DNA of 37,010 nucleotides from a virus (taxonomy: Duplodnaviria > Heunggongvirae > Uroviricota > Caudoviricetes). The notes under the pieces are model-generated. The model searched no databases. It was not told the DNA's origin and worked only from the letters and a program-made list of their open reading frames with translations. Made by a program: the position numbers and the translations under genes. Positions within the stretch are counted from its first letter, which is position 1; the number at the start of each line of letters is the position of its first letter. The stretch is from IMG/VR virus record IMGVR_UViG_2778261177_000006; one strand, 5' to 3'. This document shows positions 2,230 to 37,010 of the stretch, in pieces.

Positions 2230-3339
2230 TCACTCTGTTTCCGCTATCCATTCCGGGATTTTTGCCTCAAGCTCAAGCTGTGTGGTAAAGCCACTGTTAT
2301 CAATGGTGTGCTCGGCTTTCGCAATAATCCAGTCCTGATTATCAATCTCGCTTTTAAATCCTGTTACCGTGCCATGCATTTCGGGGTAGAGTTCTGCGCG
2401 TCCGCGTGCCAGTGTGATGGAGAATGATGCGGCTCCGCGTTGTAGCTGCTGCCACTTTGCCGCCGCTGCGCGTCTTGCTGCCTGCTCGTTCTGATAAGTC
2501 TTGCGTAACACAAACACATTGCCTTCCGCGCCTTCCATATAATCACCTTCACGGCTGCTGCTTTTCTCCTTTTTGGGTTTTGGCGGTTTGCGGCGTTTCA
2601 CGCTGACTTTTTTCTTTTTCCCGTAATTAAGATCAAGCCAGTAAGCGCGTACCCCCGTATACGCTTCGCGGTCAGCAATGCGGAACTGATGGCGATCGCC
2701 GCTGCTGCGTGTAATGGCGAACGAGGGCAACGGCTGGCCCTGCGCGTTCACACCACCACCTGGCATGATGAATAACAGATTGCCGCTTTTTACCGTGGTG
2801 ATTGCGCCCAGCATTTCCGCCATGCGCGTAAGGAAGGACATGTCGCTTTCTTCGGTCTGGTCGGCGTGGTCGATTTCGATATCCATCAGCATTTCGCTGA
2901 TTTGCGGTTTCAGACCGTACCGATGAGCGATGGCGGATACCACACGCTCAACGGTCACATCATGCCAGGACACCTCTCGTTTAACGTTAAATTCATCCCG
3001 AAAATCTGCGCTTCTGGCTGAAATGGTCAGTCTGTCGGGCGGTCCTTCATGAGCAATTTCATCAACAATGTAAGTGCCTTTTTCTGTCAGCGGTTCTCCT
3101 TTCCAGCCAATGAGAACCGTCAGGCGCGCGCCCCGTGGCGGTAGCTGCAACTGACCATCCGCATCATCCAGCGTGATGGTGAGCTGGTCCGCTTCAAATC
3201 CCCGGTTGTCGGTCAGTGACAGGCTCATCAGGCGCTCTGCCACGCCGGACAGCGTTTCCCCCTCCGCGAGAATATCAAAATCCGGCATTTTCACGGGGTC
3301 TGTGCCCTGACTGAGCAATTGCATGGTGGTGTCGGTCAT
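2230..3339 (-). CDS. D: Tail protein D (late control gene D family), start chosen at MTDTT with GGGAGGG RBS
   Basis: About 369 aa, P2 gpD size; adjacent to ogr; translation has the character of the Phage_GPD family; contains an internal lysine-rich stretch (KKKKVSVKRRKPPKPKKEK). Confidence 0.8.
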   Translation of the reverse strand: MTDTTMQLLSQGTDPVKMPDFDILAEGETLSGVAERLMSLSLTDNRGFEADQLTITLDDADGQLQLPPRGARLTVLIGWKGEPLTEKGTYIVDEIAHEGPPDRLTISARSADFRDEFNVKREVSWHDVTVERVVSAIAHRYGLKPQISEMLMDIEIDHADQTEESDMSFLTRMAEMLGAITTVKSGNLLFIMPGGGVNAQGQPLPSFAITRSSGDRHQFRIADREAYTGVRAYWLDLNYGKKKKVSVKRRKPPKPKKEKSSSREGDYMEGAEGNVFVLRKTYQNEQAARRAAAAKWQQLQRGAASFSITLARGRAELYPEMHGTVTGFKSEIDNQDWIIAKAEHTIDNSGFTTQLELEAKIPEWIAETE

Positions 3340-23828: not shown

Positions 23829-24346
23829 AGTTGAACCATTTTCTGGGTGCCGTCAGGCTTGAGATTATCAATTTCAGAGAGAACGTAATATTGAATGGCT
23901 TCACAAACGGTGGTGTATGGTGAATTACCTTCTTTAAGTGGCACGATATTATTATTAACGCGAACCTGTATTTCATCGTTATACATTGCGATCGAAAGAG
24001 GAGTATGCACGAAGGCGACTTCGCCAGGTGTGTCGTCAACCACTGTCTCAATGCTGAAAATCAGTTTTCGCTCATCATTGCCGCCCCTTGCTTTGGGGGT
24101 AGCGGCAGGAATCTGAGATAAAGGCATTCTGCGAAACCCTTCAGCCGTTTCCAGTCCGCATGAAACGTAATGCTGGCGATTACCGTCGCTATCCGTCCAT
24201 GTCTGTGATGGCAGCTCCAGAGAGATTTCATAAGCATCAACAATTCCCTGGGCAATGCGTACAAGCGGGGTCAGGTCTTCATTGCGGCGAAAACTCTCCT
24301 TTACCTGATCTCGTTTTTCTCGTAACTGCTTGTAATTAATGACCAT
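23822..24346 (-). CDS. Hypothetical protein, about 174 aa (start at MVINYKQL with GGAGG RBS); function unknown
   Basis: Clean ORF with strong RBS, own terminator, convergent with portal; no family recognised; GC visibly lower than the structural genes. Confidence 0.55.
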   Translation of the reverse strand: MVINYKQLREKRDQVKESFRRNEDLTPLVRIAQGIVDAYEISLELPSQTWTDSDGNRQHYVSCGLETAEGFRRMPLSQIPAATPKARGGNDERKLIFSIETVVDDTPGEVAFVHTPLSIAMYNDEIQVRVNNNIVPLKEGNSPYTTVCEAIQYYVLSEIDNLKPDGTQKMVQLW

Positions 24347-24448
24347 AGAACAGCCTCCATTGATTTCTTTGCTCGTATTTTGCACTTATGAAGTGTGGTC
24401 GGCAAGGTGCCGCATCACTGACGCGCTTCGCTTGTCTGCTGCTTCGCC

Positions 24449-24471
24449 GGGGCATAAAAAATTTATGCCCC
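24449..24471. promoter_or_regulatory. Perfect palindrome ggggcataaa-aaa-tttatgcccc upstream of the orphan gene
   Basis: 10-bp inverted repeat with 3-nt spacer read directly from the sequence, in the promoter-proximal region of the 23822-24346 gene. Confidence 0.4.
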
Positions 24472-24844
24472 GACTCTCCAGCTCCTGTATCAATCAGATA
24501 ATTTCGCGACGTCTTCCGACTTATCGCTATCATCGACGGCCAGACTCTTACACAATCCCGCCGCGCTGACTGCATGTTCTCGCCGCCTCAGTGCGATTTT
24601 GACGGCCTTACCTTTCATCCCATCAAATCAGAACACCTTACGTCTTTTTCACGCTCAGCGTGAGCGATACAGCCATTTTGTTGTGTCGCTGCGACATCGT
24701 TCAGGGAATGCTATTTACCCCCTGAAACGCGGGCTGTTCCCCCGTCACCTGCGCGCAGAAAAAGCGCGTTTTTTTGTGCACGCACGGATCCTTGACGGAT
24801 CCAGCCGCCATGCGGGCCGGAAGGGTAAAAAGTCGTTCAAAAAA

Positions 24845-24871
24845 ATTGTGCAAATTTGTGCACTTTTGTGC
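24845..24871. repeat. Three direct TTGTGCA repeats phased at 10 bp
   Basis: ttgtgcaaat / ttgtgcactt / ttgtgcaaac in tandem, one helical turn apart, next to the terminator hairpin. Confidence 0.6.
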
Positions 24872-24877
24872 AAACAA

Positions 24878-24900
24878 AAAGCGCCCCTGAGGCGCTTTAG
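24878..24900 (-). terminator. Rho-independent terminator of the parMR-containing operon (agcgcc-cctg-aggcgct)
   Basis: GC stem directly after the last minus-strand gene, followed on the minus strand by a T run. Confidence 0.6.
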
Positions 24901-24932
24901 TGTTTTATAGGTTGTGTATATTGGCTGGGTCC

Positions 24933-25196
24933 TTATCCTGCTGTGCTTTCAACTGATGAGGGGAACAAAATCTTTTCATCAAACCCTGCATTCATATCAT
25001 GGACAGCAACACACCAATCCATTGACGAACGATTATCAAGAGCCTCCATGATTTCATCCATGCGGCGTAGGTCATACAGGTAAATGCTTTTATCGCCAAT
25101 GGTGTAAAAACCAATTTTTTTCGGTGATGGACAGCGATCAAGAACGTCCTGTAATTCGCTCAACCATGCTTGTTCTTTTTTTGTCAAAGTTGCCAT
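24933..25196 (-). CDS. Hypothetical protein, about 87 aa (start at MATLTKKEQ)
   Basis: Last gene of the parM-parR operon; tightly packed with the upstream ORF; no family recognised. Confidence 0.45.
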   Translation of the reverse strand: MATLTKKEQAWLSELQDVLDRCPSPKKIGFYTIGDKSIYLYDLRRMDEIMEALDNRSSMDWCVAVHDMNAGFDEKILFPSSVESTAG

Positions 25197-25197
25197 A

Positions 25198-25629
25198 TCA
25201 CTCTCCTTTGATGCCAATGTCTACAGCTTGGCAAGCCTCTTTGGTCACCCAGTCAATAGCGTCTTTCCATACTCCAGTTTCGACTGGCGGATTCTCACGC
25301 TTTACCTGTTCATAGAAACGCACCGCTCTAACCAGTCCATCTGGTACTGCTGGCGCTGGCGGCTCTCGATACATAGGGATAACACGTCGCGGGTCCGCGT
25401 ATTTATCTGGCGGACACTGAAATATCTCACCGAAACCATACTGCTTGACATCACGCAGTTCCTCATCATCAGTCCATGCAACAGGTTTCGCTTCCAGCGA
25501 TGTGAGTGCGATTTTCAGTGCGATTAACATATTGTGATCGTTTTCATCAAGGCCAAACGGGATGTCTTCACGACACGATTCAAGGTCTGCAATTTTGCGT
25601 TGTAACCATTTTTTGGGGATAGTTGCCAT
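25198..25629 (-). CDS. Hypothetical protein, 143 aa
   Basis: Co-directional and closely spaced after the parR-like gene; no family recognised. Confidence 0.5.
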   Translation of the reverse strand: MATIPKKWLQRKIADLESCREDIPFGLDENDHNMLIALKIALTSLEAKPVAWTDDEELRDVKQYGFGEIFQCPPDKYADPRRVIPMYREPPAPAVPDGLVRAVRFYEQVKRENPPVETGVWKDAIDWVTKEACQAVDIGIKGE

Positions 25630-25648
25630 AGATGCTCCTCTCCTGTTT

Positions 25649-25963
25649 TCACTCTGGGAAAAATGACTGAATGTTCTTTCTTATCTCGCTAGTGCTGTGA
25701 TTGCTTCCGGTGGCAGGTGCGCTGGCATATTTACTCTGAATATTATTCTTGGCTGGCGCAGCTCCTTCTTCCGGCCATTCGGCCAACCAATAGGCAAATG
25801 CAGGATCGCGTTTTATGAGTGCCAGCCCGGCCAGAAAGGCCGCGCGTTGCGCGCGGCTGCGTTCAGAGGCTGGCAGGCTGTCGAGGTAATTACACGCCTC
25901 CCGTTCACTATTGACGGCGACTGGCTTCAGATAGAAACTTATCCGTCTGGTTGGTGTCGTCAT
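25649..25963 (-). CDS. parR: ParR-like ribbon-helix-helix centromere-binding protein (about 104 aa, start at MTTPTRRISF)
   Basis: RISFYLKPVAVNSEREACNYLDSLPASERSRAQRAAFLAGLAL closely parallels plasmid R1 ParR (RTIAFKLNPDVNQTDKIVCDTLDSIPQGERSRLNRAALTAGLAL); AAGGAG RBS; immediately downstream of parM. Confidence 0.75.
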   Translation of the reverse strand: MTTPTRRISFYLKPVAVNSEREACNYLDSLPASERSRAQRAAFLAGLALIKRDPAFAYWLAEWPEEGAAPAKNNIQSKYASAPATGSNHSTSEIRKNIQSFFPE

Positions 25964-25967
25964 TGGT

Positions 25968-26927
25968 TTACTCCTTGTCCATTGCGTACAAACCATTGAC
26001 CAGAGCAAACTGTGGCACCCCGTCCGCGATGAAAGTCGCATTAACTCCGCAGGCTTCGCGGATAGCGGGTGCCACAATCTCCGCCCCGCCACCGACAACC
26101 ATCACCCGCCCGTAACCCGAAAAACCCGCCAGCGCGCGGATCACTCGTTGTTTCAGCGTTTCTTCCTTTTCACGAATAACCGCCATCAGGCTGTCGTAAT
26201 GCGCGTCATTGTGGATGTGCTGGCGCAGCCAGGCTTCATCGTGGCGATGTTCGATAATGGTATTGGCGATATGGTGACTGGTACGCATACCGTTAGTGGC
26301 CATCACCGACAGTACGGCATCGGCCATCAGGGAAACGCCTACGTGTGGATCGCAAAACACCTGGCTGATACCTGCCAGTTGTCCCTGGACCTTTGCCACA
26401 TCCAGCGTGGTTCCGCCTAAATCCACAATCAGCAGGGATTCAAACGGACTCATGTCAGCCAGTGCTTTAAAACCAGCCGGAATGGATTCAGGCATAACCC
26501 GTACGTTACGGATAGTGAATGCTTTTCCGTTCTGGTACGCCACCGGGCGCATGACGTTTGCTTTTTTGCGGTTGATGTTGGCCATGTCCGGCTGTGCGTT
26601 TGTGTCGAAATATTCGCTCAGTGGCAGGGTGACAACCACATCCACTTCCTGTGGTGTGATGCCTGATTTGACCAGCGCGTGATGAATGGCAATGACATTC
26701 ACATCGCTGTACTGGTATTGCGTGTCGGTCGTCTGGACAAAGCGATCGCTGACCGGATCAAAACCATAGCGCACGCCATCAAGCATGTAGTTTGCGGGCT
26801 GCGTGCCACCGAACGGCGCAGACCATTCCGACTTGAAGCTGTTCGGGCTGATGGCGTTGCGGCGTTCGCCGTTCTCAGTCCATGCCAGCTTGATGTTGGT
26901 GGAGCCGTCGTCGATACAAATTTTCAT
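25968..26927 (-). CDS. parM: ParM/StbA-family actin-like segregation ATPase (319 aa)
   Basis: Near-complete colinearity with R1 ParM landmarks: IDDGSTNIKL, SPNSFK, YSDVNV-A-HHAL, KKAN, VMPESIPAG, DLGGTTLD, GVSL, VMV-GGGAE, LVNGLY. Confidence 0.85.
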   Translation of the reverse strand: MKICIDDGSTNIKLAWTENGERRNAISPNSFKSEWSAPFGGTQPANYMLDGVRYGFDPVSDRFVQTTDTQYQYSDVNVIAIHHALVKSGITPQEVDVVVTLPLSEYFDTNAQPDMANINRKKANVMRPVAYQNGKAFTIRNVRVMPESIPAGFKALADMSPFESLLIVDLGGTTLDVAKVQGQLAGISQVFCDPHVGVSLMADAVLSVMATNGMRTSHHIANTIIEHRHDEAWLRQHIHNDAHYDSLMAVIREKEETLKQRVIRALAGFSGYGRVMVVGGGAEIVAPAIREACGVNATFIADGVPQFALVNGLYAMDKE

Positions 26928-26958
26928 GTCGCTTTTCCTTATGTTGATTAATTAATCG

Positions 26959-26997
26959 TTTACGGGATTCTGAAATCCCGTTTTTGCCTGTTTTGTG
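26959..26997. repeat. 38-bp repeat unit 1 (tttacgggattctgaaatcccgtttttgcctgttttgtg) with internal palindrome, upstream of parM
   Basis: Contains inverted repeat acgggatt-N-aatcccgt followed by a T-rich tail; near-identical copy 73 bp away. Confidence 0.6.
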
Positions 26998-27003
26998 TGC
27001 GCT

Positions 27004-29826
27004 TCATATATCGCGGCGCGTTTTTTGCTCATTTACGGGATTTGTGAATCCCGTTTCTGTCTGTTTTTTGTTTCCACTGGTCAGGCCACCCCGCAGCAGG
27101 TCTGCTTTGCGGCGGGCACGTTCAGTGGTTTCACTGATTCTCTGTGCGTGCTCTGCGTCGCGGATGGCGCGCAGCATGTCAGAAAGCACGGTAACGGGTG
27201 TTTTCATGGTGTTCTGGTCCTGCTGAAGTGTGGATGCCAGGCGTGTGGCGGCTTCAGGGTCTGATGCCCCCAGCTGTGCCAGATAGCTGGCGACCGGGTT
27301 ATGGCGGATCTCCGTGCTGCTTACACCGTGATTACGGCTCAGGCGCTGCCAGAGCTGCGTGATTCGGCTGTCCGGGCGGGTATCCGGTTTGCGTACAATT
27401 TCAAATCCCTGCGGTGCAATGATGCTGCCGTCAACGTACAGACTGCCGCCCCGTAACAGGTGCTGCATTTGTTGTTCACCGATATGCAGGCCGAGAGATT
27501 CAGCAGACTCCCGCCATTCTCTAGCGAGTAATTCGTGGTTATCAGGCAAAGGCCGCTGCTGTTTGCGGCTCTGTGTCCAGCTCTGCATTTCATCACTGCT
27601 GTTTTTTGCCTGTTTGTCACGAAGCGAACGCATCAGCGCCCGGCGTTCGTGCCGTTTCAGTGAGCGCATCCATTCGTTCACTTCAACGCCGTCAGGGAGC
27701 TGCGGCCACGGTGCTGGCCGTTCTTCCGGCTGTTCTGTCCCGTTGTTGTCCGTTTCCTGTACACGGGGACAGTTATTGCCACGAGTCCAAGGGGCGGCAG
27801 GGCCGCCCTGAAGGTCAAAACCATTTTCGCGGGCGCTGTCTTCCGCTTCCGGTTTGCGTCTTACCAGCTTCCAGTTATCCGGATGCGTGCACACACGGGA
27901 GGATTCCCCGATGAGTGGTGACCAGATCCCGTAAATCTGTACGCCCTGCTCGCCGTAATCGTTCAGCTCATCTGCGAGGTCGTAGGCGGTGCGAATCAGG
28001 TAGTCCTTGCGTGGAACAAGTACGCCACCCTGTTTTTCAATGTAGGAGGCAAAACACCCGGCATCAGCGGCAGCAAGAACCGCATCCATTGCGTCATCCT
28101 TCAGCCGTTGCGGGCCTTCCGGGTTGCGTGCCATCTGGCTGGCAAGGCGGCGGAGTTCACGCCACACCTGACGGGAGGGGATGCCAAAGAACTGGAACTG
28201 GCGGACCCGGTGAAGGCGCGCCCAGCCGATGGCGCGCTCCACGCTCTCGGCCATTGATTTACCTGTTTCGTGGTCAACGCGTGGCTTGCCCGTTTTCGGG
28301 TCGATGCCATCCACGGCGCGGCTGTCCAGGTTCTTTCCGATGTAGGTCGCGATATAGCTGGTTGGTGTGCCTTTTGAGCCGTCGACATACTCCACCTTAA
28401 AGCGCGGAGTAATATCATTGCCGAGCTCGTGGCGGTCTTCCTGAATGGCAATATCGCGGGTGATGGCCACGATGCTGTCGATTTCTTCCGGATGTGCAAA
28501 GACCATCATATGCCAGTGCACTGTGCCGTCATGGTGAGGCTCCACCGTGCGGATGCCATACCAGCGAAGACCGTCGCGGTTCAGTTTTTTGCGGACCGCT
28601 GCAAAAAACGTGTTAACCAGGTAATCGCTGGAGTCGCGCATGGTGGCCCCGTTCCATCTGGGATTCGGATGACCGTTCTCTGTTGTGGCGTGGTACTTCG
28701 AAGGGGTGGTGACAGTCAGAAACACCGCTCTGTCGCCACGGGCTTCGGCCAGAAGTTCCAGCCCCTTCATGGTGGCCATCATTTCTGCCTTACGGTGAAC
28801 CGGGTTACTTACTCCCGCGTAATACACTGTCTCGAGATCAATCGTGAACCCGTCTTCGTTTTCCAGCATGAAACTTTTCAGGAAGTCGCGTGTTTTCTCG
28901 CGCTGTGCGCGAAACTCGCTTAACGCGTCCTGGCTCAGATAGGGCGATGTTTTTCTGGAAACCAGACAGGCGGCACGGAGTTGTTCTTCCCGCCACTCGC
29001 AACGTAACAGCCACAGTTTGCGTTTCCACCATTCCGCACAGGTCAGACGAAGGATTGCGCCCGGCAGCAGCTCCGTGTCCGGTTCGTTCCTCCGGTCTTT
29101 GTCTGTTGTCAGTGCTTCGTAATGCGGCGGCACGGTGTGCAGGTGTAACGCCATGCGGGCCAGCATCTGATACGCCTTCAGTGCCACCTCCATGGTCAGC
29201 TCACCATCAGTCGCGCCAAAGCCATCGCAGAGTTTTTCGAAGGTGCTGCTGAACATCGCCGCCGTCATGGTGGCCAGCGTCTGTATCTGGTGTTTGTTGA
29301 GCTGCGGCAGGTAAAGCAAATCATCCAGGCGTTCACGTCCGGCGAGGGAGCGATAACCCGGTGTCAGCCAGCGACTGTCGGCACGGTTAATGCGATCGAA
29401 TATCTTGCGCAGGGTTCCGCGTGCATAGCGTTCTGCCTGCCAGCTCTTTTTGCCTTTCCGGCGATCGGCTTCCTGTTTTTTGCGCAGGAAGGAGAGGTGG
29501 CGAATAAGCGGATCGCGCAGATAAGACGGCAGCAGGCGCAGCGAGGCCATGGCTTCATCCACCGCGCCGCGTGCCTGTTTTCTGGCGTCTCCTGCCAGTG
29601 TGATGGTTTTGTCCTGTTTTTCCTGTGCGTCCAGGCTTTTATTAATCAGGTTGCCCAGCGGCGTGGCGGAGAACGCCGCATCAGCCATTTCCTGGCGGCG
29701 CTCGTTCTCTGCCCGGTAGGCATCCAGCCAGGAGGAAAGCGCGGATTCAGGAGCGGGGATCCCCGTTCCTTCACGCCCCACTGCGTGGCGCGGTTGTTGC
29801 CAGTCCCTGATGTACTCTGCCGTCAT
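27004..29826 (-). CDS. A: Replication initiation endonuclease A (rolling-circle initiator, P2 gpA family), 940 aa
   Basis: HUH-type motif (HWHMMVFAH) and tandem active-site tyrosine motif (YIATYIGKN) in the translation; largest early-region ORF. Confidence 0.9.
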   Translation of the reverse strand: MTAEYIRDWQQPRHAVGREGTGIPAPESALSSWLDAYRAENERRQEMADAAFSATPLGNLINKSLDAQEKQDKTITLAGDARKQARGAVDEAMASLRLLPSYLRDPLIRHLSFLRKKQEADRRKGKKSWQAERYARGTLRKIFDRINRADSRWLTPGYRSLAGRERLDDLLYLPQLNKHQIQTLATMTAAMFSSTFEKLCDGFGATDGELTMEVALKAYQMLARMALHLHTVPPHYEALTTDKDRRNEPDTELLPGAILRLTCAEWWKRKLWLLRCEWREEQLRAACLVSRKTSPYLSQDALSEFRAQREKTRDFLKSFMLENEDGFTIDLETVYYAGVSNPVHRKAEMMATMKGLELLAEARGDRAVFLTVTTPSKYHATTENGHPNPRWNGATMRDSSDYLVNTFFAAVRKKLNRDGLRWYGIRTVEPHHDGTVHWHMMVFAHPEEIDSIVAITRDIAIQEDRHELGNDITPRFKVEYVDGSKGTPTSYIATYIGKNLDSRAVDGIDPKTGKPRVDHETGKSMAESVERAIGWARLHRVRQFQFFGIPSRQVWRELRRLASQMARNPEGPQRLKDDAMDAVLAAADAGCFASYIEKQGGVLVPRKDYLIRTAYDLADELNDYGEQGVQIYGIWSPLIGESSRVCTHPDNWKLVRRKPEAEDSARENGFDLQGGPAAPWTRGNNCPRVQETDNNGTEQPEERPAPWPQLPDGVEVNEWMRSLKRHERRALMRSLRDKQAKNSSDEMQSWTQSRKQQRPLPDNHELLAREWRESAESLGLHIGEQQMQHLLRGGSLYVDGSIIAPQGFEIVRKPDTRPDSRITQLWQRLSRNHGVSSTEIRHNPVASYLAQLGASDPEAATRLASTLQQDQNTMKTPVTVLSDMLRAIRDAEHAQRISETTERARRKADLLRGGLTSGNKKQTETGFTNPVNEQKTRRDI
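27032..27070. repeat. 38-bp repeat unit 2 (tttacgggatttgtgaatcccgtttctgtctgttttttg) inside the 3' end of gene A
   Basis: Same architecture as unit 1; lies within the last ~20 codons of the A ORF. Confidence 0.6.
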
Positions 29827-29832
29827 AGTGAT

Positions 29833-30198
29833 TTACTTCGTCATGCCATTCAGGGTGTCGCGGCAGACTGTAGCCAGCCGCTGAATTTCCAGCACGGTGT
29901 CTTCTGTGTCGGCATGGCGATGTGTGATGCGGATGCTGTCGGCAATCACATCGACGATTGCAGAGGATGGGCGCTGGTAAATGCCAATAACGGACGGGGT
30001 GCCACCTTCAATGCGGTAAAGCCTGTAATTTCCCTCGTGGCTGTCAATCATGTAGCGACCATCAATAACAATCTTTCCGTCAGCGAGCTGCGGTACAGGC
30101 AGGGATTTCAGGTACATGTCATAACGATCACGCACGCGAGCGGCAAGATCACGTTCTGTGTTGAGCAGGTATTCAAGAAAGTCGTTGGCGAGAATCAT
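29833..30198 (-). CDS. Hypothetical early protein, 121 aa
   Basis: Immediately upstream of A and co-directional; no family recognised. Confidence 0.5.
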   Translation of the reverse strand: MILANDFLEYLLNTERDLAARVRDRYDMYLKSLPVPQLADGKIVIDGRYMIDSHEGNYRLYRIEGGTPSVIGIYQRPSSAIVDVIADSIRITHRHADTEDTVLEIQRLATVCRDTLNGMTK

Positions 30199-30270
30199 TG
30201 CGGCAATCCTCTTGTTACAGATGTGCGAAGGCCTCCCGCCGCAAGGTGCAGGAAAGGCCCGGAACAGGAA

Positions 30271-30501
30271 TTAATGGAGTTTGTTTTGCTGCTGGATGAG
30301 CTGTTGAAGCTCGTGCAGATCATCCGCCAGATAGCTGAAAACAGCGGCGGAATAGATGTTTGATAGTGCGTGGCTGCGCTCATGCAGCATATTGATGTGC
30401 ATGATTTGCGCGACGCGTGATGCGCGGAAAAGTCTGCGGTTGATTTCAGTCTGGATGTGACGACGCTCCGCGATAGCGCGGTGCTGTTTGCGGTTTGCCA
30501 T
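30271..30501 (-). CDS. Hypothetical early protein, 76 aa
   Basis: Small basic protein upstream of the replication genes; no family recognised. Confidence 0.4.
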   Translation of the reverse strand: MANRKQHRAIAERRHIQTEINRRLFRASRVAQIMHINMLHERSHALSNIYSAAVFSYLADDLHELQQLIQQQNKLH

Positions 30502-30680
30502 GGTGTGGCCTCGTACGTAGTAAGTTTTAAAAACTCACCATCCAGAGGTGGAAAACTCGGGGTGGTGAGACGTACAGGGTTTCCACAACCGGCTACGCAC
30601 GAATCCGGCCCGACCGAAGTCGGCCCTGTACGCCCCACCATAATTCTGACGCGAAAAAGACGTGGCGATACGGTACGCAC

Positions 30681-30701
30681 AAAAAAACCGCTGGCGCGGT
30701 T
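30681..30701 (-). terminator. Minus-strand rho-independent terminator (aaccgc-tggc-gcggtt plus T7 on minus strand)
   Basis: 6-bp stem preceded on the plus strand by an A7 run, i.e. hairpin plus U tract when read on the minus strand. Confidence 0.55.
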
Positions 30702-30837
30702 GTGCGCGTGCATAGTCAGCGGGGTGGAAATCCCGGCACCCGTTTTATGAGGTGCAGCGGAAATGTAACCTGACTGATTGCGGCATGGCAAGCGGTTTTT
30801 TTGTGAGAACGGCATACTAAAAAATCCTGATACTGCT

Positions 30838-30865
30838 CCGGCCAGCGGTTTTCACTGGCCGGGTT
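30838..30865 (-). terminator. Hairpin directly after the SPFH gene stop (ccggccag...ctggccgg)
   Basis: 8-bp GC stem right after the stop; the T tract on the minus strand is a few nt away, so efficiency is uncertain. Confidence 0.45.
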
Positions 30866-30868
30866 TAA

Positions 30869-31699
30869 TTACTTCACCGGAACAAACGGAACAGCGGTAT
30901 TGCTGGTCATATATTGCGGCAGCGTGCCGTTCCATTTGTTGATTGCTTCCAGCTCCATAACGCCGGGATTCTGACGCAGAGCTTCACCGCGTAAACGAAT
31001 GGCGTCAGCTTCAGCCTGGGCTTTTGTGCGAATGGCATCAGCCTGTCCGGCAGCTTCTGCGCGCAACATGTTGGCTTCAGCTTCGCGTTGCTTGACTTCC
31101 TGTTCGCGTTGCAGGGTTTTCTGGTTTGCCGTGACTTTGGCGTTAATGCTGTCGATAACGGTTGGCGGATATTCCGGTTTACCGACATAAGAGAGGCTCA
31201 TGACCTGAATGCCGATGGGGGTCATCTCTTCCTGAATATCTTTAAGTGCTGAATCCAGCAGTTCAGACTTACCACCGTCGATAAACTTATCGGTGGTCAT
31301 TTTGCTGGCCAGTCGGTTGAGTGCATCGGCGATCTTCTGGCGCAGGTCAGTGTCGGTAATGTCATCCACGCCTTTGCGGTAGGTTTGAAACACTGTGGTA
31401 ACTTTGGATGGATCAACCTTGTAGGCCACACCGATGTGATAGCCGATGGTTGTGCCGTCACTCATCTGAAAGCTGAACGGCTCATCGTAGGTCTTCATTT
31501 GTTTGAAGGTCGGGAAGATGTAAACCTCGGTATTCCAGCCAGTCCAGTAGCGGCCAACGCCAACCACTTCGCCAACGCCTTTGTCGTCGCCCAGCTTGTT
31601 GACTTTGATGCCCACATTACCTGGCTCAACGCGATCGCAGCCAACCAGCAGGATGGCGGCAAAAAGCGGGAGAATCTGAAAGAGTTTGAATTTCTTCAT
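30869..31699 (-). CDS. SPFH/band-7 (prohibitin/stomatin-like) domain lipoprotein, 276 aa
   Basis: N-terminal signal peptide with lipobox (LLVGC); SPFH core (GNVGIKV...) followed by an Ala/Glu-rich coiled coil (AEANMLRAEAAGQADAIRTKAQAEADAIRLRGEA). Confidence 0.8.
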   Translation of the reverse strand: MKKFKLFQILPLFAAILLVGCDRVEPGNVGIKVNKLGDDKGVGEVVGVGRYWTGWNTEVYIFPTFKQMKTYDEPFSFQMSDGTTIGYHIGVAYKVDPSKVTTVFQTYRKGVDDITDTDLRQKIADALNRLASKMTTDKFIDGGKSELLDSALKDIQEEMTPIGIQVMSLSYVGKPEYPPTVIDSINAKVTANQKTLQREQEVKQREAEANMLRAEAAGQADAIRTKAQAEADAIRLRGEALRQNPGVMELEAINKWNGTLPQYMTSNTAVPFVPVK

Positions 31700-31899
31700 T
31701 GTTTGATTTCCTTGATGTACTTACTGAAAAGGCGAACAACGCCTGCCGGGTACAGCATGGCAATGAAAATGCCCAGCAATACCAGGAAGGAGCTGTCTGA
31801 TGAAATCATTCGGGGGAGTAGTCCTGCATACAGAATGAGAGAAACGAGGACGCATACCAGCGCCCACATGTATGCGCGAAACCAGGTCTTTTTGTTCAT
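31696..31899 (-). CDS. Small two-helix membrane protein (67 aa), translationally coupled to the SPFH gene
   Basis: Two hydrophobic segments; its stop overlaps the SPFH start (ATGA). Confidence 0.55.
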   Translation of the reverse strand: MNKKTWFRAYMWALVCVLVSLILYAGLLPRMISSDSSFLVLLGIFIAMLYPAGVVRLFSKYIKEIKQ

Positions 31900-31910
31900 A
31901 TCGCGGTCCT

Positions 31911-32210
31911 TTACTGGTTAAGGAAAAAATCAAAAACCTTGTCGATGCGTTGCAGTAGCTCTCGTTGCATTGCTTCCGGTGTTTCTGGTTCACCTGGTGA
32001 CTCCAGCGTCGCGCAGAAATCCCTGATTTCATGATGGAGCGTCAGGCGAATGGCAGGAGCCGTGGTTCTGGCGTGCTCCAGCTCATCCAGTAGTGCCAGC
32101 ACGGCAGACGGCGAGAGCATTGCGCGAAATGCCAGTAATTTTTGAGGTGTTGCCATTCGTTGCAGGGCAAATGCCAGTTCGCGTAGTTTCTGGTGGTTGA
32201 TGGTGCTCAT
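31911..32210 (-). CDS. Hypothetical early protein, about 99 aa (start at MSTINHQ)
   Basis: Start overlaps the upstream stop (ATGA); no family recognised. Confidence 0.45.
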   Translation of the reverse strand: MSTINHQKLRELAFALQRMATPQKLLAFRAMLSPSAVLALLDELEHARTTAPAIRLTLHHEIRDFCATLESPGEPETPEAMQRELLQRIDKVFDFFLNQ

Positions 32211-32473
32211 GCTCTGGCTTCCTTCAGTAGCTGGTTGAACATGTGAGTAAGTGGATTGCCACACCCGAATGGCATCGGGTTTACGTGGTAAGAAGCCTGA
32301 CCCCCTGTTTTGCGAGCGCGACCACCTGTGCTGCGGTTTGTTCTGATGACTAAGCCGCCGCGCCAAAGTTGGCGTAACTCAGCATTAATGGCTGTGGTTG
32401 GAGTATTCAGTGCTGCGGCGATCTCTCCGCCGCTACACCCCGGATGAGTAGCGATGTAGTCCAGAATGGTCAT
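32207..32473 (-). CDS. Small putative winged-helix DNA-binding protein, 88 aa
   Basis: Helix-turn-helix-like segment (GGEIAAALNTPTTAINAELRQL); start overlaps upstream stop. Confidence 0.4.
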   Translation of the reverse strand: MTILDYIATHPGCSGGEIAAALNTPTTAINAELRQLWRGGLVIRTNRSTGGRARKTGGQASYHVNPMPFGCGNPLTHMFNQLLKEARA

Positions 32474-32673
32474 CTGCGTGGCTCCTGTACCTGTCGGATA
32501 AGATTCACCCGCGCCACGTTGGTGGCGCAGAAGTAAGTGCCGTCAGTGAGGTAGATGTGGTGTGCATCCTTTTCCGAACGATGTTTGTCGATAGTGGTAA
32601 TCAGGCGTTCGTCGACCTCGTATTCGCGCCCTCTGGAGGTAAAGCGAACGACGGGAAAATGCTTAATTGCCAT
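32470..32673 (-). CDS. Hypothetical protein, 67 aa
   Basis: ORF in the AT-rich early segment, co-directional and tightly spaced. Confidence 0.35.
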   Translation of the reverse strand: MAIKHFPVVRFTSRGREYEVDERLITTIDKHRSEKDAHHIYLTDGTYFCATNVARVNLIRQVQEPRR

Positions 32674-32696
32674 TGCGCCCCCTTTGTCCAGTAACC

Positions 32697-33113
32697 CTAT
32701 GCGTTAAATACGGCACGTTGCGCGTCATCAATGAATACAGCTTGAGAGCGTTCTATCAGGCGGAGATTTGTCAGAAGCTCTGACTCTTTTGTGTGGTAAG
32801 GCGTTATCAGGTATTTGCCGTGCAGTTCGGCAATAATGGTGTATTGCGTCATTATTGCCGAACCAAGAATGTAAATGCGGCGTCCAATGCTGGACGGATT
32901 CATGGCTGCAACTGTTGACTGTGTTTTAAGAGTGTCGATTTCTTTGCCCTGTTCCTCAATAATTTTGGCTGCGTCAGCGGTGATTTTTGCGATGGTCAGT
33001 GCGTGAAGTGCTGCCATATGTTGGCTACGCTTCACGGCATCTTTAGCCATTTCATCTTCCGCTTCTGATATTTTTTTTAATGTGTTGATAATGCCTTCTT
33101 CTTTTGCGTTCAT
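32697..33113 (-). CDS. Hypothetical protein with N-terminal coiled coil, 138 aa
   Basis: ORF in a visibly AT-rich segment; no family recognised. Confidence 0.45.
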   Translation of the reverse strand: MNAKEEGIINTLKKISEAEDEMAKDAVKRSQHMAALHALTIAKITADAAKIIEEQGKEIDTLKTQSTVAAMNPSSIGRRIYILGSAIMTQYTIIAELHGKYLITPYHTKESELLTNLRLIERSQAVFIDDAQRAVFNA

Positions 33114-33205
33114 TTTATATCTCCATTATTTACGTGTGCGAATACCTCCGTTAATACGGATGGTTTTCACGTTTTCTTATTTAATTTGATGTTTTATTTG
33201 TATCG

Positions 33206-33319
33206 TTATTCATCAGAGAAAAAACGCTCGATCTTTTTCACTGAATTAATAATTCGCATAATCCCAATGGCGCAGACCACCGAAATAATCAGAATAAGCC
33301 ATGAGATAAAGATACTCAT
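33206..33319 (-). CDS. Small hydrophobic peptide, 37 aa (MSIFISWLILIISVVCAIGIMRIINSVKKIERFFSDE)
   Basis: Hand-translated; ATG overlaps the upstream stop (ATGA); single predicted transmembrane helix; below the ORF-track cutoff. Confidence 0.35.
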   Translation of the reverse strand: MSIFISWLILIISVVCAIGIMRIINSVKKIERFFSDE

Positions 33320-33558
33320 GCAATATTCCCCAGCTTATACGGTTCAATATGTTCCCCGCATTCTGCGGCACAGATCAGCTCGGAAAGTTCGTTAAGTGCA
33401 TCCAGATCATCAGCGTAAAAAGCCACGTCATACAGACTCCGGATTGCCCTGGTCAATGAGTCACGGGCTGCACGTTCAGCATGAGCGCCTGATGCACTTA
33501 AGCGAAAATAAAAACGCTCAAGTGCTTTATTAATGAGAGTTTTATATTCTTTGCCCAT
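33316..33558 (-). CDS. Hypothetical early protein, 80 aa
   Basis: ORF co-directional with the early operon; no family recognised. Confidence 0.45.
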   Translation of the reverse strand: MGKEYKTLINKALERFYFRLSASGAHAERAARDSLTRAIRSLYDVAFYADDLDALNELSELICAAECGEHIEPYKLGNIA

Positions 33559-33650
33559 CGCAACGCCCTTTAATCTGCTTTCTGAATTTCAGTTTCTGAA
33601 TCCATACAAATAATTTCGATATAGGGTTTATCGCCATTAACCTGGTGTGC

Positions 33651-33857
33651 CTATTCAGCTTCGCTAATGATTTCTCGTACGGTCTGGTACGGAAGTTCCA
33701 CAAGCAGTCGCGTGCCGTTCAGATAAACGTAAGTGGCTTCGTCGACTCCGTTTTTACCCGCCGGAGCCACTCCATCAATAGCGGATGCGCGTAATAACAG
33801 TTCACCGCGAAAATCAATAAAACGGATAAATACACCTTGTGCATGCTCTTTGGTCAT
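33651..33857 (-). CDS. Hypothetical early protein, about 68 aa (start at MTKEHAQ)
   Basis: Start chosen to avoid overlap with the upstream gene; no family recognised. Confidence 0.35.
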   Translation of the reverse strand: MTKEHAQGVFIRFIDFRGELLLRASAIDGVAPAGKNGVDEATYVYLNGTRLLVELPYQTVREIISEAE

Positions 33858-33867
33858 AAAGCACCTG

Positions 33868-34218
33868 TTATAAATCAGCCTGTTTAATAAAACTTTGTCC
33901 GCGAAGCAGACGATCAACCGTGCGTAGTGCTTCGTATAATGTGAAATCCTGCCCGAACTGATTGTCGCCGCTGCTTAGTGCAAAAATGCGATTTCCGGTA
34001 AACGGATTGCGTGGGCATTTATGGACCACGATTCCAGCTTTCTCAATCAGCCAGGAATGCTCGCCGATTTGTTTTACTGGGTGGCCATCCGGCGTTGCGT
34101 GTGTATCACTCAGGCTGTAGCGGATGTTGCTGCGTGATGCACTGGTAGCGAAACGGTTAGCATGGCGTTCCGCACCGTTGCGGAAGCGCTGCTGTGAAGA
34201 ATTGCGCTGTAGTTTCAT
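33868..34218 (-). CDS. Hypothetical early protein, 116 aa
   Basis: ORF co-directional with the early operon; no family recognised. Confidence 0.45.
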   Translation of the reverse strand: MKLQRNSSQQRFRNGAERHANRFATSASRSNIRYSLSDTHATPDGHPVKQIGEHSWLIEKAGIVVHKCPRNPFTGNRIFALSSGDNQFGQDFTLYEALRTVDRLLRGQSFIKQADL

Positions 34219-34353
34219 ATTAAAACTCTGTACCTTCGGTAAGGTGTACTCGTGTCACCTTGTATTGATTTGTGGTATTTTTTGTGTGTCTAGGACTTGG
34301 ACTGGCCGGTTCAGGTCCTGGCTTATGTTTAATTAAATTGTTTAGAGGTTTTC

Positions 34354-34545
34354 ATGTCAGAAGATAAAAAAGTTGTTAATTTGTTGAGTGAACTTAGTGC
34401 TGCTCTGGATAACATTAACTCTCCCAGGGTAAAAACGACGGGTGATAAAGACGCATTAAACGCAGAGATTCATATATTACTGGCGTTAGTAACTGACAAA
34501 ATTCAGCGTAAATACCCACCTGTCACACAACTGGTTGATTTTTAA
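34354..34545 (+). CDS. Hypothetical small protein, 63 aa, convergent with the neighbouring AT-rich gene
   Basis: AGAGG RBS before the ATG; shares a terminator hairpin with the convergent minus-strand gene; AT-rich. Confidence 0.45.
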   Translation: MSEDKKVVNLLSELSAALDNINSPRVKTTGDKDALNAEIHILLALVTDKIQRKYPPVTQLVDF

Positions 34546-34551
34546 TTTGAT

Positions 34552-34974
34552 TTATGCCGGGCTGCTCCCGGCATCTTCTAGCTGCCATAATGTCTCGTCA
34601 CCTGATAGAGCAAAACGAAATGAGTGAAGTATATCCTCCCGAGAGAAGCTCACGGCTACAGCTGCGGGAAAGTCAAATATAATCCCACCTTCATTTTTAA
34701 AACGATTACGCAATTGATAGGCTATCGGTTTGATTTGTGCAGGAAGAGTATCTATATCTCTTCCATTGACAACAGAATCTTTGTTTTCAAGTACTGATTT
34801 AGCGATTAGATATAGATGCCAGTAACTGGTTACAATTGTTACTCCTGTGATGTGTCGTAAATTAATTGCAATTCGTCCGTTATTATGTTTTTCCGCAAGG
34901 TATTTCAGGTTATCAATTAATGCTTGGTCATTTTTTGAAATAGTTATTGTGAAATCTGACGTGTTTGTTTTCAT
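34552..34974 (-). CDS. Hypothetical protein, about 141 aa (start at MKTNTSDF), AT-rich
   Basis: ATG one codon after the upstream stop; visibly low GC; no family recognised. Confidence 0.5.
   Translation of the reverse strand: MKTNTSDFTITISKNDQALIDNLKYLAEKHNNGRIAINLRHITGVTIVTSYWHLYLIAKSVLENKDSVVNGRDIDTLPAQIKPIAYQLRNRFKNEGGIIFDFPAAVAVSFSREDILHSFRFALSGDETLWQLEDAGSSPA
34554..34576. terminator. Bidirectional hairpin (gccgggctgctcccggc) between convergent genes
   Basis: Inverted repeat gccggg...cccggc located between the two stop codons. Confidence 0.45.
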
Positions 34975-34978
34975 ACGA

Positions 34979-35500
34979 TTAGTTGCCTCTGTTGTTTCTG
35001 AGTTGCTCCAGTTTTGAGCTTCTGCCTGTATAAATTCGCTTACCGTTAATGGTCTGGCAGTCTTCTTTATTAGCTGGAGAGAACTTCCTTTTCTGGCGGT
35101 CATACGTCCAGTAACTTTTCCAGTTGTGCCATTCTGGGGGCTCGTACTCTGGTAGCTCATCAGCCAACTTGTCCCACTCTTTGGCGTTAAACCACCATAC
35201 TCCGTCTGAGTTTTCATCTTCCGGGTTTGTGCGCGTTTTGTGTCCCGGCATTTGACCGCGATGAATGGCTACGCGCAGTGCAGATTTTGTTAGCCCAATA
35301 TATGCCGCGCCTTTTTCCAGAGAGCAAAGCCCGGCGATCGGACCATCCAGCCGTAAAGTCGCTCCTTTTTTGTAGGAACGCTTTTTCTTGTTTTCTTCGT
35401 GTTCGTCGTCGTTGGCGGCATCAGCGGGTTCGCCAATACCACCACTTTCCTGGAGTTGTTGAGTGTCAGATAACTCTTTATCGGCAATGATGTCCCGCAT
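34979..35500 (-). CDS. First early-operon gene, putative HTH DNA-binding regulator (Cox/Apl position), 173 aa
   Basis: Divergent from the C repressor gene; helix-turn-helix-like segment (AAYIGLTKSALRVAIHRGQMPG); much longer than P2 Cox, so function assigned by position only. Confidence 0.45.
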   Translation of the reverse strand: MRDIIADKELSDTQQLQESGGIGEPADAANDDEHEENKKKRSYKKGATLRLDGPIAGLCSLEKGAAYIGLTKSALRVAIHRGQMPGHKTRTNPEDENSDGVWWFNAKEWDKLADELPEYEPPEWHNWKSYWTYDRQKRKFSPANKEDCQTINGKRIYTGRSSKLEQLRNNRGN

Positions 35501-35600
35501 TTGTTATCCTCTTGCGTTGGTGCGCTTGTCGCGCCTTGTGATTGATTGTTTTGGTTTGTCTAATGTCGAGATTACGACACTTTAAGAGGATTTTAGTGGT
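35501..35600. promoter_or_regulatory. Immunity switch region between the divergent early operon and the C repressor gene
   Basis: 100-bp intergenic stretch between divergent starts; contains short direct repeats (cttgcg / cttgtcgcg / ccttgtg, gattgattgtt) but operators were not defined. Confidence 0.5.
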
Positions 35601-35948
35601 ATGAATTCGACACTGTCAACGTGTATCGGCGAAAAAATTTTATTGATTCGAAAAAGTGAAGGGCTGACAAGAAAGCAATTCTTTGAACTTACAGGGATTC
35701 CGGTTAATACCCAAAGATACTACGAAACCGGAAGACAGGAAGGGATAGGGAGTGAAATTTTGTTAAAGATTACAAAGAATTCACGACTCAAAAAATATGC
35801 GCTTTGGTTAACGACAGATGAAACATTTGAAGCCGGAGGGCAAATCGCCCCGGCTCTCTCTCTTGATGGCTCTATTCAGTCGGAGGACGATCAGGTTTCA
35901 ATCGGCATTACCCAAAAATCACCCCGATCAGGCCGCAATGTTGGCTGA
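35601..35948 (+). CDS. C: P2 C-type immunity repressor (115 aa)
   Basis: EKILLIRKSEGLTRKQFFELTGIPVNTQRYYETGRQ and KYALWLTTDETFEAGGQIAPAL match the P2 C pattern (EKIVLMRKSE...LTGVP...YYESGR; KYTLWFMT...GQIAPAL); directly upstream of the integrase. Confidence 0.8.
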   Translation: MNSTLSTCIGEKILLIRKSEGLTRKQFFELTGIPVNTQRYYETGRQEGIGSEILLKITKNSRLKKYALWLTTDETFEAGGQIAPALSLDGSIQSEDDQVSIGITQKSPRSGRNVG

Positions 35949-36017
35949 CTTTACACATTGAGCGAATTACATATCGCAAGGAGTGTTTAGTTAATTTATC
36001 CGTTGGAGGGGCTAATC

Positions 36018-37010
36018 ATGTCGATTAAGCAACTCAAAGACGGACGTTATCAGGTCGATATCAGACCGCAGGGGGCGGAAGGAAAGCGGATTCGAAAAAT
36101 CTTTGCCCTGAAATCAAAGGCTCAGGAGTTTGAGAAGTATGTGTTACAGAACTTTCATGACAAGCCATGGCAGGCTAAGCCAGCTGATCAGCGGCGATTA
36201 TCAGAGCTGCTTGATGCGTGGTGGATGCTTGATGGGCGTAATCAGGCTTACGGGGATAGCTACAGGGTTAGGCTAGGGAAGGTTGTTCGTGAAATGGGAG
36301 ATCCTCGCGCCAGTCAGATGACGCGAAAATTTATGCTTGAATATCGGTCAGAGAAATTACAGGCCGGCTTAATGCCGTCCAGTATTAATCGTGACTTATG
36401 CGTACTGTCTACCATGTTCACGGTGCTGATTGAAGCTGAGGTCTTTCACAACGCGAACCCTGTACGCGGTATACGAAAACTGAAAGTTCAGAACACAGAG
36501 ATGGCCTTTCTTTCTGATGATGAGATTGAACGGCTTCTTGAGCGACTGGAGGGTGATGCGCGTCGTGTTGCCATTCTGTGTCTTTCTACTGGTGCCCGAT
36601 GGAGTGAAGCATCGGAACTACGTGGAGAGCATATCGTTGGCAACCGGGTGACGTTCTTTAACACCAAAAACGGAAAATCCCGTTCGGTTCCTGTGGCGGA
36701 TTCGGTCGTGCCTCTGATTAAAACCCGTCGAACGGGGTTATTGTATCAGGTTGATTATCTGAAGTTCCGGGAGATTCTTCAGGAGGTGAAACCGGATTTG
36801 CCGAAGGGGCAGGCTACGCATGTCATGCGTCATACATTTGCCACACACTTTATGATGAATGGCGGAAATATTGTTACGTTGCAACGAATCCTGGGGCACG
36901 CAACGATTCAGCAAACAATGACGTACGCTCATTTTTCGCCGGACTTCTTACAGGACGCGATCAACTTTAATCCGCTGGCTGAAAGTGTCCATAAACTGTC
37001 CATCGATTAG
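36018..37010 (+). CDS. int: Tyrosine integrase, P2 Int family (about 330 aa, start at MSIKQLKDGRY)
   Basis: N-terminal MSIKQLKDGRYQVDIRP as in P2 Int; C-terminal catalytic box HVMRHTFATHF...LGHATIQQTMTYAHF (His-x-x-Arg ... Tyr); GGAGGGG RBS; stop is the last codon of the window. Confidence 0.9.
   Translation: MSIKQLKDGRYQVDIRPQGAEGKRIRKIFALKSKAQEFEKYVLQNFHDKPWQAKPADQRRLSELLDAWWMLDGRNQAYGDSYRVRLGKVVREMGDPRASQMTRKFMLEYRSEKLQAGLMPSSINRDLCVLSTMFTVLIEAEVFHNANPVRGIRKLKVQNTEMAFLSDDEIERLLERLEGDARRVAILCLSTGARWSEASELRGEHIVGNRVTFFNTKNGKSRSVPVADSVVPLIKTRRTGLLYQVDYLKFREILQEVKPDLPKGQATHVMRHTFATHFMMNGGNIVTLQRILGHATIQQTMTYAHFSPDFLQDAINFNPLAESVHKLSID

Follow-up and report, generated by a model that had tools for sequence, protein, structure and literature searches.

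An optional two-gene cassette pairing an SPFH lipoprotein with a small two-helix membrane protein in the early region of a P88-like prophage

Why should a phage carry a gene for an SPFH (Band-7) protein, and why should that gene overlap with one for a very small membrane protein? The question arises in a stretch of DNA of 37,010 nucleotides (nt) from a virus of the Caudoviricetes (IMG/VR record IMGVR_UViG_2778261177_000006), referred to here at its full length as the window, in which two adjoining genes on the minus strand encode a protein of 67 amino acids (aa) and an SPFH-domain lipoprotein of 276 aa. The window is a P2-like prophage of the P88 type, in the genus Xuanwuvirus of the Peduoviridae, and the pair is that of Escherichia phage P88, with protein identities of 100% to gp12 and 98.5% to gp11. 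According to a 2026 paper it remains unclear why phage genomes should contain the SPFH gene (PMC13239085), and no functional study of any phage SPFH pair was found in the literature searched, which covered prophage- and phage-encoded SPFH proteins, exclusion, anti-phage activity, prohibitin/HflK, N4 gp19/gp20 and P88. The answer that we consider fairly probable is that gp11/gp12 form one optional two-gene cassette encoding a single inner-membrane complex, which would serve in a dispensable takeover or protection of the host membrane early in lytic growth. The pair itself is laid out as follows.

31696 to 31899, minus strand: small partner gene, an open reading frame (ORF) of 67 aa with two transmembrane (TM) helices, homologue of P88 gp11 and N4 gp19

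30869 to 31699, minus strand: SPFH/Band-7 lipoprotein gene, an ORF of 276 aa, homologue of P88 gp12 and N4 gp20

31696 to 31699, minus strand: ATGA stop/start overlap of both genes, as read from the sequence (caATGAag)

31637 to 31699, minus strand: SPFH codons 1-21, the predicted lipoprotein signal peptide MKKFKLFQILPLFAAILLVG-C21, then Asp22

How secure is the identity of the two products? An earlier description of the locus, made from the letters and their translations and called here the sequence-only reading, had given the coordinates of both ORFs exactly and had taken them to be translationally coupled, a proposal borne out by the overlap of stop and start codons, which indicates a probable coupling; each start has an AGGA-type ribosome-binding site at a distance of 8-11 nt on its 5' side. 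The SPFH domain that it had recognised is confirmed by a formal search, in which the 276-aa protein matches the Pfam family Band_7 (PF01145) from position 2 to 176 of the 176-position profile with 108.4 bits against a gathering score of 23.6 (E=5.7e-31), and by full-length structural matches. An AlphaFold2 model of the monomer, built on 33 homologues and with a mean pLDDT (predicted local distance difference test) of 75.7, lays out strands at residues 21-95, helices at 97-162 and one helix of 65 residues at 179-243, and the C-terminal tail carries KWNGxLP, the conserved form of which is KW[ND]GxLP. Searched with Foldseek against the PDB, the model returns prohibitin, HflK/HflC, erlin1/2, stomatin, flotillin and QmcA (E 2e-13 to 1e-7, probability 1.0) in alignments that span 243-305 columns, all of them full-length, cage-forming SPFH proteins, while the nearest solved chains by sequence alone are HflK (E=1.2e-4) and prohibitin-2. 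Against viral structures the Foldseek matches were all to unannotated 'Band 7' proteins. In the PHROGs database the 276-aa protein belongs to phrog_200 ('lipoprotein', E=1.8e-112) and the 67-aa protein to phrog_1130 ('membrane protein', in the category moron, auxiliary metabolic gene and host takeover, E=1.3e-22), so that with both profiles matched by adjacent genes with overlapping ends the window carries a member of the phage SPFH pair defined by these two families.

The N-terminus of the SPFH protein, MKKFK followed by the hydrophobic run LFQILPLFAAILL and then by V-G-C21 and D22 (lipobox L-V-G-C21), contains the charged N-region, the hydrophobic core and a lipobox of the form [LVI][ASTVI][GAS]C, and the description of the product as a lipoprotein is thereby upheld. 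When scored with a strict PROSITE-style pattern, the lipobox is matched by 26 of 33 close homologues, 21 of these 26 having Cys-Asp, and several of the seven that fail the pattern still have L-T/V/A-G-C; the lipobox Cys is invariant in alignment A1. An Asp at position +2 is the inner-membrane retention signal of E. coli (Escherichia coli) lipoproteins, and Asp22 thus suggests that the mature protein would be retained in the inner membrane. A separate observation concerns a subfamily on E. coli plasmids of ~110 kb (P0114-P0120; hits H89-H94; up to 175 contigs), in which the SPFH protein is ~74% identical and ...GIIGYDRVEPG replaces the lipobox ...GCDRVEPG, with loss of the lipidated Cys; these proteins presumably use an uncleaved signal anchor.

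The small partner is also as first described, a two-helix membrane protein, with two hydrophobic helices on either side of the loop LLPRMISSDSS and with ends rich in Lys and Arg (three in the first eight residues and four in the last twelve). It has no match in Pfam (E<=0.01) or NCBIfam, and a word-index protein search returned close E. coli relatives only, for which reason its wider homology was established through synteny, PHROG profiles and gene fusions. The search for related loci gave relatives of at least 93% identity only, and distant phages were fetched singly. The synteny sample consists of 86 SPFH-bearing sequences, namely 85 fetched loci and the window. A two-TM ORF of 62-78 aa that ends 4-20 nt inside the SPFH gene is found in 84 of the 86, a few of these ORFs having been called with longer upstream starts. 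The two loci that lack an intact partner are L014 (about 2790-3004) and L074 (1-214), both with an intact SPFH gene alongside. In one of them, a locus with 100% SPFH identity, the small gene has a 1-nt frameshift, and in the other it is truncated at a sequence junction; these knock-outs could be sequencing errors or real decay.

The arrangement extends well beyond P88. In N4 a 68-aa two-TM protein (gp19) overlaps the start of a 278-aa SPFH lipoprotein (gp20), much as in the window, with identities of 62-64% between the SPFH proteins and ~28% between the small proteins, although N4, unlike the window phage, is strictly lytic; neither its annotation nor the literature searched records a function for gp19/gp20. 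The same order is present in Erwinia phage Fifi051 and in phiP27, where it is unannotated, and two-TM partners that share the loop motif P-x-[ML]-[IVL]-S-[SA]-x-[SDN]-[ST] occur also in Aeromonas, Agrobacterium, Burkholderia and Rhodobacter phages. The partners of N4 (E=1.4e-20), Fifi051, phiP27, the Aeromonas phage and the Agrobacterium phage all match phrog_1130, with E values from 2.5e-23 to 7e-9.

Do the two products act together? Run exhaustively against 1.84 billion cluster representatives, phmmer gave 221 relatives of the SPFH protein at E<=1e-30 and 953 at E<=1e-10, and the start of the SPFH core could be located in 114 of the best 150, which form the scorable set. Among these 114 representatives, 22 are extended at the N-terminus by 55 aa or more that include at least two hydrophobic segments, the loop motif being present in 18 of the 22 and a lipobox-like Cys just before the SPFH core in 20. 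The order within these fusions is two-helix hairpin, K/R-rich linker, signal/lipobox segment and SPFH domain, and phrog_1130 is the best family for each of the ten extensions tested (E 1.3e-12 to 1.8e-3). Identical copies of one such ORF, P0143, occur in three assemblies; its contig has a phage-like look, in that a series of small genes, all on one strand, follows a gene for a PDDEXK_1/DUF3799 exonuclease. As Rosetta-stone evidence the fusions argue that both products work together in the inner membrane. They also bear on topology, since in the 18 motif-bearing fusions the share of Lys plus Arg is 19% in the N-terminal tails, 5% in the loops and 25% in the linkers between helix 2 and the signal-like segment. 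From the positive-inside rule and the fusion architecture we infer that the ends of the hairpin would be cytoplasmic, whereas its loop and, at the inner membrane, the SPFH domain would face the periplasm, and the Asp at +2 agrees with an inner-membrane placement of the pair. A sole C-terminal fusion of a phrog_1130-type hairpin was read at the protein level in a metagenomic representative (P0148, 344 aa), an order that would put the SPFH C-terminal tail beside the membrane.

What might such a complex do? The SPFH protein would be lipid-anchored at Cys21 on the periplasmic face of the inner membrane. By analogy with HflK/C, prohibitin, erlin, stomatin, flotillin and QmcA-YbbJ, which make up the solved full-length SPFH proteins, its subunits would be expected to form a closed cage, with oligomer contacts along the long helix and the C-terminal tail. 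The cage could then fence off a patch of membrane that holds the hairpin partner and possibly a host client, and the complex may act early in lytic growth by sequestering or shielding a protein of the inner membrane or by stabilising that membrane.

Two groups of known systems help to place this proposal. The NfeD-SPFH operons (QmcA-YbbJ, YqiK-YqiJ) likewise have a small membrane-protein gene directly upstream of the SPFH gene and co-translated with it. QmcA and YqiK face the cytoplasm, and the window SPFH protein, which is predicted to be exported, differs from them in this respect. The window partner also lacks the C-terminal OB-fold domain of NfeD, having no Pfam match and being, at 67 aa, too short to contain one. 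In the solved NfeD-SPFH complex (8Z5G) the partner sits with the cage, and QmcA matches the window SPFH model in Foldseek with E=7e-8. The top structural matches to the window protein, the cages of mitochondrial prohibitin PHB1/2 and of erlin1/2 in the endoplasmic reticulum, lie on the non-cytoplasmic face of their membranes; they differ in being eukaryotic hetero-oligomers anchored by TM helices, with 14-18% identity to the window SPFH protein.

Is the pair a settled part of this phage lineage or a passenger? The boundaries of the cassette and its neighbours are these.

30819 to 31910, minus strand: optional cassette of ~1.1 kb (ribosome-binding site, small gene, SPFH gene, hairpin and U-run), right boundary +/- ~15 nt

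31911 to 32210, minus strand: Ead/Ea22-like early gene directly upstream of the pair (phrog_4144, E=2.4e-61; P88 annotation)

30838 to 30862, minus strand: 10-bp G+C-rich hairpin (CCGGCCAGUG-AAAAC-CGCUGGCCGG), 7 nt past the SPFH stop codon and part of the cassette

30762 to 30791, minus strand: promoter-like site (TTGCCA, 18 nt, TACATT) that ends 7 nt before the 5' end of isrK

30681 to 30755, minus strand: isrK-family small RNA (Rfam RF01394, 62.2 bits against 50)

30558 to 30645, minus strand: C4 antisense RNA (Rfam RF01695, 77.5 bits against 45), conserved in loci L001-L004

30271 to 30501, minus strand: gene for a 76-aa 'derepression protein' (PF25738, E=1.2e-7; phrog_3688), downstream of C4

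The window and P88 contain the cassette, which 705R2, P884B11 and the majority of E. coli P88-like prophages lack; the absence of the pair from close relatives supports the original view that it is inserted within the early region. Where the cassette is missing, as it is from 705R2 and P884B11, the Ead-like stop codon has the conserved isrK promoter within ~20 nt downstream (alignment A3, of four phages), and in Citrobacter phage Shae_phiSM an unrelated 183-aa DNA-binding gene occupies the same slot. A direct repeat or duplication was sought at the cassette ends in alignment A3 and none was convincing, and the cassette shows no foreign base composition (GC content 0.51, that of the window being 0.53). 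The backbone segment 29833-30800 is present at a coverage of at least 80% in 874 of 5,426 complete E. coli genomes and the pair, at the same coverage, in 145, figures that speak against a ubiquitous core component with a structural role; if these 145 pairs sit in that backbone, as the IMG/VR loci suggest, about one slot in six is occupied. The slot was also considered as a rotating defence hotspot, an idea unsupported in a small sample of four E. coli prophages in which it is empty in three and holds the pair in one.

Among IMG/VR loci with at least 96% SPFH identity, all 58 with enough downstream sequence have the order Ead, pair, hairpin, isrK/C4 and derepression gene, a 59th being cut short beyond the pair. 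Other contexts apply to the 25 loci of 90-96% identity, namely P1-like phage-plasmids, where the pair sits between tRNA genes, and phiP27/Stx-type prophages, where it sits near int/xis. If variants of the SPFH gene down to ~75% nucleotide identity are counted, 711 of the 5,426 E. coli genomes (13%) have one, in 417 chromosomal and 386 plasmid places, and 768 of 50,697 phage records (~1.5%) contain a homologue, with strictly lytic carriers plentiful (N4, Vequintavirinae, Ounavirinae, Kayvirus and phiCbK). We therefore regard the pair as an accessory, mobile element and not as a core part of the lineage. The early/immunity region around it (24000-37010) is a mosaic that outside the cassette is nearest to 569R5/705R2 (82% of the segment aligned, at 95% identity), both of which are without the pair; the cassette itself, unlike the rest of the early region, matches P88.

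When would the cassette be expressed? It lies at the end of the first early transcription unit, with only 11 nt between the Ead-like stop codon and the ATG of the small gene, and a promoter scan found no promoter-like site upstream of the pair on the minus strand from 31900 to 33124. From this position in the genome, early transcription from Pe would be expected to reach the pair last, before the isrK-C4-derepression-gpA unit. In N4 the pair is among the left-end genes beside the RNAP2 gene, and in other lytic phages it is among early/middle-type genes. An early-lytic role is favoured over control of the lysis-lysogeny decision because the family is common in strictly lytic phages and because no promoter of its own was found; the pair is unlikely to be a component of a lysis-lysogeny switch. 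The single promoter-like site found upstream on the minus strand lies at 33154-33125, just before a 138-aa ORF.

These observations also alter the picture of the boundaries, which the sequence-only reading had taken to be insulated by two tandem terminators. Insulation is lacking upstream, where the Ead-like gene stops so close by and the scan was empty, and neither downstream element is a canonical terminator that belongs to the pair. The first, the hairpin at 30862-30838, folds at -24.8 kcal/mol (z=-2.46) and was not called in a terminator scan of the minus strand; a U6 run at 30824-30819 begins 13 nt after its stem. As a canonical intrinsic terminator it is rejected, since it has no adjacent U-tract; it may instead stabilise the mRNA or terminate weakly, and it accompanies the pair in all 58 P88-type loci. 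The second, the stem at 30701-30686 with its T-run, is the canonical 3' terminator of isrK and is present where the pair is not. With neither a promoter of its own nor a canonical intrinsic terminator, the cassette differs from a terminator-bounded moron.

Several points weigh against the proposal of an early-lytic inner-membrane complex. Oligomerisation, lipidation, localisation and expression timing are all inferred. An Arg at +3 may weaken the retention conferred by Asp at +2, and the last 27 residues of the SPFH model have pLDDT below 50, so that closure of the cage is not modelled. The partner is not universal, the two-TM protein being missing from Vequintavirinae, Kolesnikvirus, Pseudomonas HHBS55_2, Kayvirus and Enterococcus EF24C, where the small membrane-protein neighbour, if there is one, has a single TM helix. 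The promoter scan is a crude consensus, and an internal or non-sigma-70 promoter could permit expression in the lysogen; constitutive expression of the pair is conceivable in the P1-like plasmid and Stx/phiP27-like contexts. Finally, an HflK/C-like lipoprotein encoded by a Pasteurella prophage has been reported in outer-membrane vesicles (PMC9872710).

The same evidence permits a broader reading, which we regard as possible and put forward tentatively. The families represented by gp11 and gp12 could constitute a phage-specific two-component membrane-cage system, distinct from both HflK/C and NfeD-SPFH and sometimes made as a polyprotein with an internal lipoprotein signal, that many lytic and temperate phages deploy early to enclose or neutralise a specific host machine of the inner membrane. 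Candidate targets would be FtsH, the DNA-entry route of competing phages or a membrane-targeting abortive-infection effector. If this were true, it would represent a new class of host-takeover device.

What, then, of FtsH itself, the gating of which by HflK/C had led the sequence-only reading to propose a role in the lysogeny decision? On this account the phage protein would bind or replace HflK/C, alter the stability of FtsH substrates and so tune lysis-lysogeny or protect labile phage proteins, and we judge it unlikely. P2-type phages decide lysogeny via C/Cox, and no P2-like phage is known to depend on an FtsH-labile CII, which counts against such gating here. The resemblance to HflK/HflC comprises the SPFH fold with its long helix, a predicted placement on the periplasmic side of the inner membrane and a probable cage, and the nearest solved relatives, HflK/C and prohibitin, are associated with FtsH and the m-AAA protease, respectively. 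However, the Foldseek scores of erlin, stomatin and flotillin are nearly equal, so that the fold does not single out partners of FtsH. There are also differences: HflK and HflC are two SPFH paralogues, each anchored by an N-terminal TM helix, whereas the window has one SPFH subunit, predicted to be lipid-anchored and without such a helix, together with a 67-aa hairpin that is not an SPFH protein. The protein fails the HflK/HflC equivalog models, with 25.7 bits against a cut-off of 134.4 for TIGR01932, 23.5 against 159.4 for TIGR01933 and 20.7 against 660 for PRK10930. The idea has precedents, having been proposed for other phage SPFH genes (PMC4936722; PMC8540360), and one phage annotation reads 'putative FtsH membrane protease modulator'. 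It meets the difficulty that members of the family are common in phages that are obligately lytic and so have no choice of lysogeny to make, an objection already raised in PMC8540360.

A second alternative, superinfection exclusion or another anti-phage function, would have the complex block DNA entry or the membrane steps of other phages in the manner of T4 Imm and Sp, whether made by the prophage or at an early stage of infection. It is attractive in that the pair is optional cargo in a variable slot, which another gene fills in Shae_phiSM, and in that the gene is frequent on phage-plasmids and prophages, as the 711 E. coli genomes attest, and adjoins int/xis in phiP27 and Stx phages; the PHROGs category of the small partner fits as well, and early expression would suit exclusion during lytic growth. 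Against this, PADLOC-DB v2 gave no defence-protein match for the SPFH protein and for the small protein a marginal one only, to PDC-M18B (E=0.0078, no passing stretch), no promoter-like site that would serve for expression in the lysogen was found, the four sampled slots held no rotating defence genes, and no link between phage SPFH genes and exclusion was found in the literature searched. On balance we hold exclusion to be improbable.

Least of all is to be expected of lysogenic conversion, a highly improbable reading in which the lysogen would express the lipoprotein and export it to vesicles or the outer membrane, where it would be a TLR2 agonist acting on an animal host, as might be argued from its lipoprotein signal and by analogy with PM0222, an HflK/C-like protein of a Pasteurella multocida prophage that is reported to be present in outer-membrane vesicles, to activate TLR1/2 and to contribute to virulence (PMC9872710), but which sits poorly with a family widespread in lytic phages of environmental bacteria, with the two-TM partner and the fusions that tie the SPFH protein to the inner membrane, with an Asp at +2 that favours retention there and with the lack of any promoter found for the pair itself.

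How much of this is new? The novelty that the sequence-only reading had attached to the pair does not survive comparison with deposited genomes. The genes are those of P88 (NC_026014 / KP063541), nothing differs in the pair, and the neighbours are alike in both phages, with the Ead-like gene, pair, hairpin, isrK, C4, derepression gene, orf121 and gpA in the same order; the P88 records annotate gp12 as 'lipoprotein' or 'putative SPFH domain protein' and gp11 as 'membrane protein', and the wide occurrence of homologues among phage records has been described above. The paper on P88 makes no mention of the SPFH gene. The pair is thus already known at the level of annotation, and the suggestion of an FtsH-lysogeny link is neither new nor supported. 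What is new here is the partner family with its fusions, the predicted topology, the clean insertion site and the corrected reading of the downstream elements. The importance of the locus rests on a widespread, uncharacterised family, of which the window pair is an ordinary annotated accessory cassette. The dedicated partner, the fusions and the early-region position narrow the question to a bipartite, periplasm-facing inner-membrane complex that would act in lytic growth, and P88 gp11/gp12 and N4 gp19/gp20 are tractable genetic handles on it.

The RNA genes downstream of the cassette merit a description of their own. isrK and C4 are found at the same place in P88, 705R2, P884B11 and Shae_phiSM, and the promoter-like site of isrK is invariant across the four aligned phages. 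Past the derepression gene come a 121-aa ORF and then the 940-aa replication gene gpA. The tandem of isrK, C4 and derepression gene in a P2-like early region resembles the c4-ant module of P1 or the isrK module of Gifsy-1. A link between the SPFH pair and this module was considered and rejected, as the RNAs occur without the pair and the P1-like and phiP27-like pairs occur without the RNAs. An ORF of 205/206 aa (window 30195-30815, minus strand; L002 2196-2813; L004 2196-2813) spans isrK, C4 and the derepression gene and carries, in E. coli genomes and related phages, the label 'transcriptional regulator', 'hypothetical protein' or 'ash family protein'; the call is probably spurious, a coding sequence placed on top of genes for non-coding RNAs. 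The gp13 gene of P88 overlaps isrK/C4 too, from the opposite strand.

Further variation lies on either side. The 138-aa ORF mentioned above (32697-33113, minus strand; phrog_9338) marks a second presence/absence slot in the same early operon, being present in the window, 705R2 and Shae_phiSM and absent in P88 and P884B11. The gpA endonuclease (27004-29826, minus strand) has its Phage_GPA domain at residues 179-503 of its 940 aa, with long extensions on both sides, and in P88 a ParM-like plasmid-segregation gene adjoins gpA (L001 1-428), which is unexpected for an integrating P2-like phage.

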